The notes beneath the pieces are model-generated. The model saw only the letters and a list, made by a program, of their open reading frames with translations, ran no database searches and had not been told where the DNA came from. This document shows positions 345 to 36,508 of a stretch of DNA of 37,167 nt, piece after piece. Each line of letters starts with the position of its first letter. The first letter of the stretch is position 1. Made by a program: the position numbers and the translations under genes. Source of the stretch: a bacterium (GTDB taxonomy: Bacteria > Babelota > Babeliae > Babelales > JABDEC01). The stretch is taken from assembly GCA_947481115.1 (NCBI GenBank), contig CANKEI010000003.1:1-37167 (forward strand). Reading direction: 5' to 3'.

Positions 345-500
345 TAGACTTCTTCCGTAATTCACAGTTTTTCTCGCAACATCCCCCCTCGACTGACGCT
401 CGGGGTGAGCGGGGTTCGGGACGACCGTGTCCGGCATAGCCTCTGGCGACGCCTGGAGCGGGCGAAAGTAAGTTTACAAGATAGTTACGGAAGAGCTCTA
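345..500 (+). mobile_element. MITE-like composite palindromic element, full-length copy (156 bp)
   Basis: 16-bp terminal inverted repeats TAGACTTCTTCCGTAA ... TTACGGAAGAGCTCTA (14/16 match) with TA at both ends. Contains the TCGA/CTC core hairpin and the TGTCCGGCATAGCCTCTGGCGACGCCTG module. Near-identical inverted copy at 22716-22874. Confidence 0.85.
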
Positions 501-711
501 ATAAACAATGGGATCAGGCCATTACTACCTAGAGTATTGGTTAGGGTGATTTTAAAATAAGCTAGGCGCTTTTTAGCACTAAAATTTGACAAATATGTGT
601 TGCAGATTAACTTTTCTATATAGCATGTGCTTGATGGCAAAAAACTTTTTCCCTCTACATATAGGCTAGTACAGACGATTAACAAATTTCGCGCGTGAGT
701 CGAAGACAACT

Positions 712-2832
712 ATGGATACCTCAGGTTTCAAAATAAAGTCCCCAATTATCATATTTTTATTGTTATGTGGCGGGTTAAATACTGCTGATAACTTATACGC
801 TAAGCCGGATCAGGTTGGGACTAATAATAGTGGCAATGGTGTGATTAACACTAATGCTAGCGATATTAGCTTAGTTGGTAGTAATACTGGAATAGTAACT
901 AGTAAAGTAAAATTAGATAATGTTGACGAACTAATTGCTGCCGAGAATCTCACTGAATCTGTGCATATCCAAGCCGCTAAAGCAACCGAAAAACAAAGAG
1001 AGATTTTTGGTTGCCGGTGGGACGATAATGAATTTGAAGTGGGTTTGAAAAATCGCGTAGAAATTTTTTACAGTAAAAACTGTGCGTTGTTTAGCGGTAG
1101 CCCATTAGATCAAGTATTATGGGCCCAAGGGATTTGGGATTTAAAAGCTAAAGCTAAAATTGGCAAAACCTTAGAATCTTATTTAGTGTTGCGTAATAAG
1201 AGTCGCTGGGGTAGTCCAGACTCGATTGCTACCACTTCCACTACGCCAATTAAGTTGGCAGATGCAACATTTGGTGATCATGGCCATTATATTAGTAAAC
1301 AGATCTTCTGGTTACGTGAAGGTTGGGTCGATATTAATTTAAATAATACTATTGGGGTGAACACTGATGGTATACAGCATTTTAAAGCTGGTTTATTCCC
1401 ATTTGAATTAGGGCGCGGTATTGCGCTTGGTTCGGCTTATGCTTCATCTGCAGGTTTACTTGGTTTCTATGCTGATAGTACCGTTGATCAAAATGCGCCA
1501 GGGTTTTTATTATATGGTGATTTAGCTAAAGACAAAGTTTTCTATGATATGTACCTCGGAATTTTACGCAATTGGACTGATAACTTTGGACGTATAAACG
1601 AAAAACTTTATACTAACGAGTTAAATCCAGAATGGAATGGTTCGCGCGGATTTGGGCATGTAAATTTTGTTTATGCGATGCGAGTAAAATGGTACCCGAT
1701 GAGTGTTAAGCAGGGCGATCATAGTACATTGGTAATCGAACCATATTTCTTATTTAATCGTAATCCCGAAGTATCGATTGAATTTCCAGCAGACAGTGCC
1801 AGCAATTTAATTACCCCGGGCTTGATGGTTGACTATGAAGGTGAAAAATTCCAATGGGGTTGTGAGTTTGCTGCCAACTTTGGTCATCAGACTGTGCATG
1901 GTTGGGACAGTAACCAAATAGAGATAAAAGCAGATAGTAATGGAAATTTAGTGGAACAATACACTAAAGTTTATAGCAACAGTAATTTAACTACCAATGC
2001 ATTAGTTAGTAGCACCAATAAAGCGATTGTGAAAAAATATGCTGGTAATGATCCAGATTTAAATGGTCAACAGATCAATAATACTGGGTTATATAATGGC
2101 GCAACTAGATTTAATCCAAAATACCATAATATTTATAAAGGTTTTATGTTGGTAGCTGATCTAAGTTGGCTAATTACCAAGGCGTTAAAACTTTCTGGAA
2201 CTGTCGGCTGGGCCACCGGCGATGAAAATCCGAATCGTGATTTAACAGGTCTTGGCGATAGCAATGTTGATGGCGACTATCAGGGCTTTATTGGTTTACA
2301 AGAAGTTTATTCTGGTAAACGTGTAATTTCACTATTTGTAATTGGGCCAAACTCAATTGCTCGACCATTATCATCTGTTTCTGATCCAAGTGTCACTGGT
2401 GTTTATCCATCTAAAGTAACTGGCTTTAATAATATTTTATATTGTGGTGGCGCCTTAAATTTCGATCGAAAATTCTGCTCTAAAGCCGTGAATTGGAATT
2501 TGGGATTATTGAGTTATTGGCAAGATTATGCTACTAAGAAATTTAGTATTCCGTTAAAACATTCAATTGATGTGCCTGCTAGCAGGCATCTTGGTACAGA
2601 GTTTAACGCTACAATAACAATGCAATTTGTGAAAAACCTAAAAGGATTCTTGGTTGGTGGATTCTTTGTACCAGGTCAACATTTTAAAGATATTAGAGGT
2701 AAAGCGCTAAGCAAAGATGACTTAGCGGCATTGGAGCAATTAGATGATGACGGTTTTAGTATCTCAGGAACACCACTCTTGAATACTAAAACAGCATTTG
2801 TTTTAAACTGGGGTATCGAATATGCCTTCTAA
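712..2832 (+). CDS. Exported protein, probable outer-membrane beta-barrel (706 aa)
   Basis: N-terminal hydrophobic signal (IIIFLLLCGG), many amphipathic aromatic-rich strands, C-terminal WGIEYAF ending in Phe. Overlaps the aspS start by 11 nt. Confidence 0.7.
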   Translation: MDTSGFKIKSPIIIFLLLCGGLNTADNLYAKPDQVGTNNSGNGVINTNASDISLVGSNTGIVTSKVKLDNVDELIAAENLTESVHIQAAKATEKQREIFGCRWDDNEFEVGLKNRVEIFYSKNCALFSGSPLDQVLWAQGIWDLKAKAKIGKTLESYLVLRNKSRWGSPDSIATTSTTPIKLADATFGDHGHYISKQIFWLREGWVDINLNNTIGVNTDGIQHFKAGLFPFELGRGIALGSAYASSAGLLGFYADSTVDQNAPGFLLYGDLAKDKVFYDMYLGILRNWTDNFGRINEKLYTNELNPEWNGSRGFGHVNFVYAMRVKWYPMSVKQGDHSTLVIEPYFLFNRNPEVSIEFPADSASNLITPGLMVDYEGEKFQWGCEFAANFGHQTVHGWDSNQIEIKADSNGNLVEQYTKVYSNSNLTTNALVSSTNKAIVKKYAGNDPDLNGQQINNTGLYNGATRFNPKYHNIYKGFMLVADLSWLITKALKLSGTVGWATGDENPNRDLTGLGDSNVDGDYQGFIGLQEVYSGKRVISLFVIGPNSIARPLSSVSDPSVTGVYPSKVTGFNNILYCGGALNFDRKFCSKAVNWNLGLLSYWQDYATKKFSIPLKHSIDVPASRHLGTEFNATITMQFVKNLKGFLVGGFFVPGQHFKDIRGKALSKDDLAALEQLDDDGFSISGTPLLNTKTAFVLNWGIEYAF

Positions 2833-34871: not shown

Positions 34872-36413
34872 ATGATCTCCCAAAATAGCCCAGACAATAA
34901 TAATTCCCAAAATAATAATGCCCCGGAAACAGATAATATAAAACAAAGCTCTCGCCCGTTCATGGTGAGTGATTTAGACGCGAGCCCGACGGAGCATAGC
35001 GATAAATCGCATCGAACCATAGATAACAATTCTGGCACCATAGTTAGAGTAAGTGGTACCGTGATTGACGTTCAGTTTGAGCACACTAAAATCCCTACAA
35101 TTAATAATTTATTGTATGTCCAAGCTGCGAACAATCAAAAAGTATTTGTCGAAGTTGTACAGCAGTTGGGTGACGGGATAGTGCGTTGTATTTTATTGGT
35201 GGGTACTAGAGATTTATCCTGTGGCTTATCCGTCGTAGATACTGGTGCACCAGTGATGGTGCCAGTGGGTGATGTGGTACTAGGACGAATTTTTAATGTG
35301 TTGGGCCAGCCGATAGATAACCGTGGACCAGTTAATCATACTGAACAACGTTCGATCTATCATGATACGCCATTACTAATCGAACAAGCGATCGATAATA
35401 GTTTGCAAGAAACTGGCATTAAAATTATTGATCTCATGTGTCCCTACGTCAAAGGTTCTAAGATTGGTTTATTTGGCGGTGCCGGTGTTGGCAAAACTGT
35501 TTTGGTAATGGAATTAATTAGAAATATTGCTAAAGAGCATGATGGCGTTTCGGTCTTTACGGGTATCGGTGAACGAACTCGCGAAGGCAACGAGTTGTGG
35601 CTCGAAATGCGCGATACCGGCGTACTAGAAAAAACTGCTTTAGTATTTGCTCAGATGGGTGAACTGCCAGGTGCTAGATTACGTGTTGGTCTGACCGGTT
35701 TAACTATGGCAGAATATTTTAGAGATAAACAGCACAAAGACGTTTTATTATTTGTGGATAATATTTTTAGACTTGTACAAGCTGGCGCTGAAGTTTCGGC
35801 TTTATTAGAGCGCATGCCATCAGCTGTGGGCTATCAACCGACACTGGCATCTGAAATGGGTGCTTTTCAAGAACGTATAGCTAACACGATTAACGGTTCG
35901 ATTACTTCGATTCAAGCCGTCTATGTGCCAGCAGATGATATTACTGATCCGGCACCAGCGACTACTTTTGCCCATTTAAATTCTAGTACAGTATTATCGC
36001 GTAAATTAGTTGAGCTGGGTTTATATCCCGCAGTTGATCCACTAGAATCTAATTCAGCTGGCTTAGTGCCAGAAATTGTTGGCGAACAGCACTATCGTGT
36101 AGCTAAACGCGTGCAAGCAATTTTACAACGCTATCGTGAACTGCAAGATATTATTGCGATTTTAGGTTTAGATGAGCTTTCAGATGAAGATAAGTTAGTA
36201 GTTAAGCGGGCCAAGATTCTACAGAAATTTTTGACGCAGCCCTTATTTACGGCGGAGCAGTTTACCGGTATGGCAGGGCGGTATGTGGCTCGAGAACAGA
36301 CAGTAGCTGATTGCGAACAAATTGTGAATGGTTTATGTGATGATTTACCAGAGCAAGCTTTTTATATGATTGGTACCTTAGAAGAAGCTAGAACTAAAGC
36401 CAAAGAATTATAA
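34872..36413 (+). CDS. atpD: F1F0 ATP synthase beta subunit with N-terminal extension
   Basis: [57 protein letters not shown] precedes ATG 34872. Confidence 0.97.
34955..35021 (-). repeat. Palindromic core element (TGGT/ACCA type) in frame inside atpD
   Basis: CCCGTTCATGGTGAGTGATTTA...TAAATCGCATCGAACCATA. Encodes [22 protein letters not shown]. Confidence 0.82.
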
Positions 36414-36445
36414 AATAGAGTTATAAAAAAACAAAGTCCTAATTT

Positions 36446-36508
36446 CCCGCTCCAGGCGTCGCCAGAGGCTATGCCGGACACGGTCGTCCCGAGCGAAGTC
36501 GAGGGATG
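36446..36508 (-). repeat. Palindromic core plus 33-bp module between atpD and atpC
   Basis: CCCGCTCCAGGCGTCGCCAGAGGCTATGCCGGACACGGTCGTCCCGAGCGAAGTCGAGGGATG. Confidence 0.88.

Follow-up and report, generated by a model that had tools for sequence, protein, structure and literature searches.

Introduction

Tagged palindromic repeats of bacterial genomes are classed as GTAG or CGTC repetitive extragenic palindromes (REPs), simple stems of 5–13 bp bearing those tags, in the excerpts of PMC3733652 on which we draw. The same excerpts (PMC3733652, Di Nocera, De Gregorio and Rocco 2013) describe the CGTC REPs as a tagged stem-loop superfamily found in several phyla and 'apparently lacking a dedicated transposase', with 8–9 bp stems that start with A-T pairs, loops of 4–5 nt and a CCA tail. 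Rickettsia palindromic elements (RPEs), as portrayed in PMC10969869, are ~150 bp long, encode a conserved peptide in each family and sit in frame in unrelated genes that stay open. Here we analyse a dispersed hairpin family in a stretch of 37,167 nt from a bacterium of the order Babelales (GenBank assembly GCA_947481115.1, contig CANKEI010000003.1, positions 1 to 37,167), referred to below as the window. Its members share a 4-bp stem of variable sequence, an unpaired TCGA, a CTC and a YGARCG(G) tail, and they are probably copies of one non-autonomous, selfish, REP/RPE-like DNA repeat superfamily whose mobiliser would act in trans and, in this lineage, would not be a Y1 transposase of the REP-associated tyrosine transposase (RAYT) or IS200 kind.

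The source genome (G000; 0.88 Mb in 70 contigs, 37% GC, estimated 75% complete), in which the window is contig C3, was compared with 40 relatives of the same order (G001–G040; 0.5–1.9 Mb each), giving 41 genomes in all. Two of the relatives, G001 and G002, are congeners of G000, and its family is sampled by eight genomes in total.

Hairpin cores of the window

A preliminary description, made from the letters of the window, had claimed 12 hairpin cores, and all 12 were recovered on the strand it gave, at the same position or a few bases off. The deviations it recorded, TCC for CTC at 11748 and CCCC/AGGG at 19850, are real; the middle is 5–42 nt long, as it had claimed, and usually forms its own covarying hairpin in the TGGT type. 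It had missed the nested CCCC double units, a coreless partial element at 8047–8152 and the in-frame copies. Aligned unedited with MAFFT, the 12 cores fall into one register in which TCGA is invariant and the CTC and GA..G tail columns are near-invariant. The strict pattern TCGA-N3..33-CTC-N4-YGARCG matches the window seven times, against a mean of 0.05 in 100 shuffles (largest 1), ~100-fold above chance. One of the seven, at 11858–11902 (-), covers part of the 11837 core from the other strand and falls outside the 12 noted cores. The features are as follows.

345–500 (+): full composite miniature transposon with 16-nt inverted ends (345–360 and 485–500) and TA on both flanks, containing a nested CCCC core (385–411), whose outer TCCC..GGGA unit runs to ~425, as well as a second GC-rich module
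4866–4891 (-): solitary TCCC core whose middle is 5 nt, located in the AspRS–enolase spacer
8047–8152 (+): partial composite element, consisting of the right inverted end and the second GC-rich module without a hairpin core
11748–11785 (+): TGGT core with an apical hairpin and TCC for CTC, without a counterpart in the orthologous G001 and G002 spacers
11837–11872 (+): TTCC/GGGA core with a 15-nt middle, absent from the same spacer of G001 and G002
11935–12030 (+): left half of a composite element with an inverted end (11935–11950) and a nested CCCC core (11977–12003), absent in G001 and G002
17296–17342 (-): TGGT core whose middle is 26 nt, occupying the initial codons of the secretin frame 14447–17356 (-)
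17725–17750 (-): TCCC core, in frame within the GspC-like frame 17343–18647 (-)
19850–19876 (+): nested CCCC/AGGG core without inverted ends, between a MoxR-like gene and a divergent frame starting at ~19798
22716–22874 (-): full composite miniature transposon with inverted ends (22716–22731 and 22859–22874) and TA flanks, containing a nested CCCC core (22805–22831) and the second GC-rich module
31730–31767 (+): TGGT/GCCA core carrying an apical hairpin, located in the spacer that separates the Lon gene from a 2874-aa frame
34957–35019 (-): TGGT core with a 42-nt middle, in codons 29–50 of the ATP synthase beta frame
36443–36506 (-): TCCC core (36481–36506) followed by the second GC-rich module (36443–36480), without inverted ends

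One family with compensatory stems

Across the source genome, the pattern N4-TCGA-N3..60-CTC-N4' with a Watson-Crick stem has 99 matches, against 2–20 in ten Markov controls, and 81 of these use three stems only (TGGT 32, TCCC 31, CCCC 18). A covariance model built from the 12 window cores, a check proposed in the preliminary description, aligns the TGGT and T/CCCC types together and finds 70 copies in the 0.88 Mb of G000 at a cut-off of E<=0.01. Within the 12 cores, 47 of the 48 cells of the 4-bp stem pair (97.9%), 15 of them changed on both sides, a level that none of 500 shuffles reached. Loci from other genomes (at least 119) were selected by a single TGGT-type pattern in a one-genome-per-species collection, and the same model recovered 101 copies in 100 loci. 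In these copies, related members of which are not independent events, every one of the 404 stem cells is paired and 98 changes are double-sided, again with 0/500 shuffles reaching this level; shuffled partners pair in 71% of cells and slid partners in 26–68%.

The loci from other genomes also carry CCCT/AGGG (36), TCCT/AGGA (26), TGCT/AGCA (5) and TCCC/GGGA (5) stems, together with a dozen rarer complementary ones. Copies with a CCC stem and the exact TGGT-type interior (TCGATAC-hairpin-CACTC) occur in six relatives (G020, G023, G028, G029, G033 and G040), and in G004 and G041 the stems ACCA, AGGG, AGGA and GGGA are all found with the same short or long interiors. Stem and interior assort independently. 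Because such intermediate combinations occur in relatives, and because both types fit end to end in a single model, the TGGT and T/CCCC types are one family with compensatory stems, as the preliminary description had supposed.

Anatomy of the scaffold

Read from 5' to 3', the scaffold may open with an outer stem; a 4-bp stem follows whose sequence is free provided that it pairs, then a fixed unpaired TCGA (often TCGAYAC), a free apical part, a fixed (CA)CTC, the second stem strand and the tail YGARCG(G). The apical part ranges from 5 nt to a hairpin of 40–60 nt or a nested second unit. In the TCCC type this yields a three-tier hairpin, with an outer stem (~CYCGC/GCGRG), an internal loop and the 4-bp stem preceding TCGA-middle-CTC. 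The CCCC type is a nested double unit, its inner CCCC..GGGG with a tail of its own lying inside an outer TCCC..GGGA; all four CCCC copies of the window (385, 11977, 19850 and 22804) are nested, those at 385 and 22804 in full composite elements and that at 11977 in the left half of one. The TGGT type is compact: its ends, TGGT-TCGATAC and CACTC-ACCA-YGAACG, are fixed, and the apical hairpin that they enclose is free to vary in sequence while its pairing is kept. Of the 101 copies from other genomes, only about one to two thirds pair the outer stem CCGTTC/GAACGG, which is thus optional.

An alternative pairing of N-TCG with CGA-R is unsupported: 98% of its cells can pair, but only one double-sided change was seen and 110 of 500 shuffles reach the same level. 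A K-turn, a tRNA-like T-arm/acceptor end and the archaeal bulge-helix-bulge splice motif were dropped on inspection of the sequences, known small ribozymes were dropped for want of an Rfam match, and an operator of a dimeric regulator was ruled out by the variable spacing.

Three further structural observations concern the scaffold or its surroundings. Some TGGT copies have their first 10 nt tandemly duplicated (C6:8646-8656 and C28:1525-1535 in G000; the G001 orthologue of window position 17342). The second GC-rich module (~36 nt; ~432–466, 8085–8125, 22740–22775 and 36443–36480) follows some cores, with or without inverted ends, and does not itself fit the TCGA/CTC scaffold. G004 has many copies of a larger composite repeat of ~200–250 nt, which combines a pair of inverted, more complex units on this scaffold (for example C1:80314-80516, C2:92149-92351 and C3:40294-40488).

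Distribution across genomes and phyla

Within the order, the general pattern occurs 0–106 times per genome in the 41 genomes, with controls at 3 or fewer; 20 genomes hold at least 7 copies and 17 hold none or one. G004 has 106 copies (94% complete) and G001 has 39 (96% complete). Such patchy copy numbers are typical of selfish repeats. Beyond the family of G000, the genomes G018, G041 and G043 carry 31 to 126 copies, the highest number belonging to G041 (126 copies, 1.6 Mb, its listed matches lying on one contig).

The TGGT pattern alone matched at least 119 stretches of the one-genome-per-species collection, in which a handful of chance matches is expected by our estimate. Among the 80 matches listed, isolates and metagenome-assembled genomes (MAGs) span the Alpha-, Beta-, Gamma- and Deltaproteobacteria, Campylobacterota, Chloroflexota, Fibrobacterota and Dependentiae, and none is a Rickettsia record. 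By record title, the cultured hosts among the matches listed include Sphingomonas, Thiocystis and Moraxella, and the MAG hosts include Beta-, Gamma- and Deltaproteobacteria, Sulfurovaceae/Sulfuricurvum, Dehalococcoidia/Chloroflexota, Fibrobacteres, Binatia and Dependentiae. In roughly half of the copies from these genomes the tail pairs with an upstream CCGTTC, which produces a longer hairpin, and the units there often form inverted doublets with differing stems. G004, G041 and other phyla commonly show inverted doublets; in G000 most copies are single. At least 120 stretches of viral contigs match the general pattern, many of the single matches possibly by chance on our information estimate; only 12 of the 80 viral loci listed are convincing, namely those with close inverted pairs.

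Copies inside genes

With genes called crudely as the longest frames that do not overlap (87% coding), the 77 strict copies of G000 divide into 41 in spacers, 25 inside frames, nine within a frame's first 150 nt and two overlapping an end. Spacers are enriched ~4-fold in copies, 41 of the 77 lying in the 13% of the genome outside long frames. A Pfam search assigned families to 17 of 20 interrupted frames, all of which stay open, with the element placed inside or between domains. In SufC, Cmk, a penicillin-binding protein transpeptidase, NurA and a solute-binding protein it lies within a domain; in MetRS (two copies), Fpg, MurG, transketolase, an ATP-dependent DNA ligase and two glycosyltransferases it separates domains of a single protein. 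Comparison with solved structures places a 79-residue gap at the element in SufC and one of ~26 residues in Cmk (cytidylate kinase). The SufC insertion recurs in G001 with a different interior, is nearly absent in G002 and absent in G004, and the same variable loop of Cmk holds a different family member in G001.

In-gene copies are read in all three frames and in both orientations, so no constant peptide is selected. Relative to the gene, copies in tandem spacers lie on the same strand in 13 cases and on the opposite strand in 11, those inside frames in nine and 16, respectively; spacer types are used in proportion to their length, with no preference for convergent or tandem ones. The element acts at the DNA level, is indifferent to strand and is gained and lost. 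In the window, homology of the atpD frame to solved beta subunits begins at residue 53, and the sole ATG/GTG between the upstream ATG and that residue lies in the element. As no ordinary start codon separates the element from the conserved AtpD N-terminus, the element supplies coding sequence or the start itself. The copy at 17296, in turn, precedes a signal-peptide-like stretch of the secretin frame.

Gain and loss between congeners and strains

The spacer that holds the copies at 11748, 11837 and 11977 measures ~380 nt in the window versus ~60–110 nt, free of copies, in G001 and G002. Likewise, the AspRS–enolase spacer region, site of the 4866 copy, has ~174 nt in the window and ~16 nt in G001, and G001 shares the copies at 17296 and 17725, which G002 lacks. 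Closer strains differ as well. Long contigs of runs X6 and X11, from two other studies, differ from the window stretch by ~2% and bridge 17699–17762 with 17 letters versus 62, a net in-frame change of 45 nt by which the copy in the GspC-like frame is gone; these contigs also have 244 different letters in place of the 107 at 8049–8155, the site of the partial composite element. Copies have thus been gained and lost among congeners and among close strains alike.

Two kinds of joint were set aside: those at 22760–22833 (side of 23 letters) were not counted as an allele, being probably other simple-core composite copies, which are present in G000, and those linking distant repeats (for example 12005 to 17292) reflect cross-mapping of repeats. 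Directly after the 17725 copy, at 17700–17724 (-), lies a ~22-nt AT-rich coding tandem duplication, one repeat unit of which is also missing in the close strains without the copy. Elsewhere, the stretch 6279–9399 has no counterpart in G002. It includes a truncated YhcG/DUF1016 PD-(D/E)XK nuclease gene (6287–7197) between direct repeats of ~36–55 nt (~6215–6269 and ~7160–7215); a short X6 contig, with a side of only 30 letters, joins 6286 to 7198, and another X6 contig covers the nuclease gene.

A composite miniature transposon

Some CCCC-type cores are housed, together with the second GC-rich module, in a composite element of ~155–160 bp that has no coding capacity, ends in inverted repeats of 16 nt and, in the listed copies, is flanked by TA on either side. 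Its terminal inverted repeats, short flanking duplication, multiple copies and lack of coding sequence are those of a miniature inverted-repeat transposable element (MITE), which we take to be of the IS630/Tc1-mariner kind. G000 holds 24 composite ends (~12 copies), each of the two congeners holds one mismatched end, and the other 38 relatives have essentially none. Because the ends are abundant in G000 and near-absent in the 40 relatives, the composite element represents a recent, lineage-specific burst confined to G000. No parent insertion sequence with such ends was found in G000, where all end pairs lie 80–180 bp apart, or around genes in the 40 relatives; the likeliest agent is an IS630/Tc1-type DDE transposase supplied in trans.

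Gene content of the window

The gene content of the window is ordinary for a bacterium (AspRS, enolase, Lon, a MoxR-type ATPase, an epimerase and the F1 ATP synthase beta subunit) and includes a cluster encoding two secretins with GspC/GspL-like proteins. In this cluster (9400–18647, -), the two secretin genes accompany GspC-like and weakly GspL-like frames, and repeat copies lengthen both secretin frames at the 5' side. The 2874-aa frame at 22875–31499 (-) has no Pfam match and contains internal repeats at ~25566–26771.

Candidate mobilisers

Nine frames tightly flanked by inverted units contained no transposase in a Pfam scan. Three had no family, and the other six matched an ABC ATPase, SufBD, M23 and S26 peptidases, a pseudouridine synthase and, weakly and below threshold, a DUF. 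Clustering of the frames near elements in 239 loci brought together only phage portal, capsid and sheath genes and class I aminoacyl-tRNA synthetases. Separately, a PDDEXK_9 family of ~530-aa proteins has eight matches in G000 (C8, C10 twice, C40, C52, C63, C64 and C66) at 74–80% DNA identity, up to 23 matches in G014 and up to 20 in G029.

Origin of the family and competing explanations

If the hairpins are selfish repeats moved in trans, as we propose, the fixed unpaired letters and the tail would be the recognition or cleavage determinants of the trans-acting enzyme, which would read a transiently folded single strand. The stem would need only to pair, and the apical part would be free and would tolerate further insertions. 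One subfamily would ride in the TA-flanked inverted-repeat miniature transposon that has expanded only in G000. A broader proposal falls somewhat short of probable: the family may be a third pan-bacterial superfamily of tagged hairpins beside the GTAG and CGTC REPs, with a mobiliser other than RAYT, and the RPE-like colonization of essential genes in frame may have evolved independently in Dependentiae.

Several results weigh against a selfish repeat with a trans-acting mobiliser. No mobiliser was found, and Y1_Tnp (PF01797) matches none of the eight genomes of the family, including G000 (only 75% complete), G004 and G001. The profiles PDDEXK_9 and YhcG do not track element content over the 41 genomes, and the 2260 clustered frames within 1.5 kb of elements in the 239 loci yielded no mobiliser candidate. 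For the composite element, DDE_3 gave one weak sub-threshold fragment at a contig end in G000, and none of the five DDE_Tnp_1 matches in that genome lies between element ends. No target-site duplication could be defined at solitary hairpins, whose flanks are too divergent (~80% identical). The preliminary description had also proposed recognition as single-stranded DNA or RNA; this we still infer, and its predicted folds are no better than shuffles, with DNA-parameter z values of +0.74 to -1.40 in nine window copies and RNA-parameter mean z values of -0.6 to -1.65 in 73 copies, neither unusually stable. Finally, the stem takes only three main forms in G000, which leaves few independent compensatory events, and the 101-copy alignment was fitted to the model on loci chosen by the TGGT pattern.

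The failed searches bear in different ways on two other mechanisms. The preliminary description had rightly reported that no mobiliser is evident in the window and had likened recognition of the element to that of REPs and REP doublets forming hairpins (REPINs) by RAYT transposases. A REP/REPIN-like element moved by a RAYT/IS200 HUH Y1 transposase, its gene unassembled or recently lost in G000, would suit a hairpin with conserved unpaired letters, the inverted doublets of G004 and other phyla and the incomplete assembly, and at one proteobacterial locus (L165) a Y1_Tnp gene does lie near a unit. As a mechanism, the analogy is nevertheless unsupported and very unlikely: Y1_Tnp is missing even from the 94–96% complete G004 and G001 and from the element-rich G018, G041 and G043, it is present in 9/20 element-rich and 6/17 element-poor genomes, neither GTAG nor CTAC stands at either end of any of the 12 aligned cores, and the single unit at L165 lies ~180 nt upstream of the gene, which is flanked on that side only. 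Spread without a dedicated transposase, by ectopic gene conversion, slippage or hairpin-templated duplication among copies, would account for the lack of a transposase in the searches. It is in keeping with nested units that resemble duplications of the 5' stem and 3' half-unit, with the tandem 10-nt 5'-end duplications and the ~22-nt duplication beside the 17725 copy, and with the interior that differs between G000 and G001 at one SufC site. Recombination alone would not, however, seed new unrelated sites such as 25 different reading frames, nor does it explain identical conserved letters in distant phyla, and we regard it as unlikely.

That conservation of the unpaired letters across phyla, together with the enrichment in spacers, would also be expected of a structured RNA or DNA motif kept by selection for the host, such as an mRNA stabiliser, a terminator-like signal or a binding site for a host protein, and roles of this kind are credited to REPs in the excerpts of PMC3733652. 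A host function is improbable all the same, since the copies show no bias of orientation or spacer type, lie in frame within genes in both orientations, number zero in many relatives and more than 100 in others, differ in presence between close strains, match no Rfam family and are not followed by a T-run. Two unrelated repeat families sharing TCGA, CTC and the tail by chance are scarcely credible. Within G000 the types do have only ~13 fixed letters in common and differ in their interiors, but the stem/interior intermediates, the fit to a single model and the ~100-fold excess over chance already contradict this view.

Implications

If the proposal holds, a very widespread bacterial repeat scaffold has hitherto gone unnamed, and translations of the scaffold probably seed many spurious 'hypothetical proteins'. 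Element-rich genomes of ~1 Mb without a Y1 transposase would offer a small search space for the missing enzyme, and Dependentiae would be a second independent case, besides Rickettsia, of essential proteins tolerating selfish DNA in frame. At a practical level, the repeats break assemblies (contigs C9 and C18 start in or within ~100 nt of a copy) and lead to inflated or fused gene calls, as in the frame for ATP synthase beta, which is ~50 codons too long at its 5' side.

Comparison with known systems

Comparison with Rfam returned no match at the gathering score, so that none of its curated families matches the hairpin, and at E<=1 returned one unrelated snoRNA match elsewhere in the window. 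Literature searches with motif strings, for repeats in Dependentiae and for REPs, outside supplementary files, found no description of the family or of palindromic repeats in Dependentiae; one DNA string drew hits that appear to stem from a 16S rRNA primer. Judged from sequence and literature, we class the hairpin family as a REP/RPE-like structured repeat, and there is a fair chance that it constitutes an undescribed superfamily.

Integron attC sites are set by their fold, with boxes that pair, unpaired bases that are conserved and a terminal structure that varies, and carry the motifs RYYYAAC and GTTRRRY. They serve here as a working analogy only: both are sites defined by structure, with conserved unpaired bases and terminal structures of very different lengths, whereas TCGA, CTC and YGARCG appear unlike those motifs, and the hairpin copies are dispersed, in both orientations and in genes, instead of standing in cassette arrays. 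The composite element resembles TA-flanked inverted-repeat MITEs in its 16-nt ends, TA flanks, lack of coding capacity and ~12 recent, genome-specific copies; it differs in that no parent insertion sequence was found in G000 or the 40 relatives, and the solitary hairpin units lack such ends altogether.

With the REP/REPIN–RAYT system the family shares short, GC-rich, high-copy palindromic units, a conserved unpaired tag and subfamilies with compensatory stems, as well as frequent inverted doublets in some genomes and some intragenic copies, features of REPs in the excerpts of PMC3733652. It is distinguished by the absence of GTAG, a 4-bp stem, large conserved internal loops and an apical part of 5–60 nt, and no RAYT is present in the eight genomes of the bacterial family that includes G000. 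From the CGTC REPs, as characterized in the excerpted text of PMC3733652, it is set apart by its 4-bp stem, 5–60 nt middle and YGARCG(G) tail, while sharing with them a tagged stem-loop spread over several phyla, a short 3' tail, intragenic copies and the apparent lack of a dedicated transposase; one of the 28 families of that paper may still overlap it. Compared with RPEs by description rather than by sequence, the core is shorter here (26–65 bp), and each of the three frames and either orientation is used in reading it; as in the RPEs of PMC10969869, palindromic repeats with no known mobiliser lie in frame in open housekeeping genes of a small genome from an intracellular lineage.

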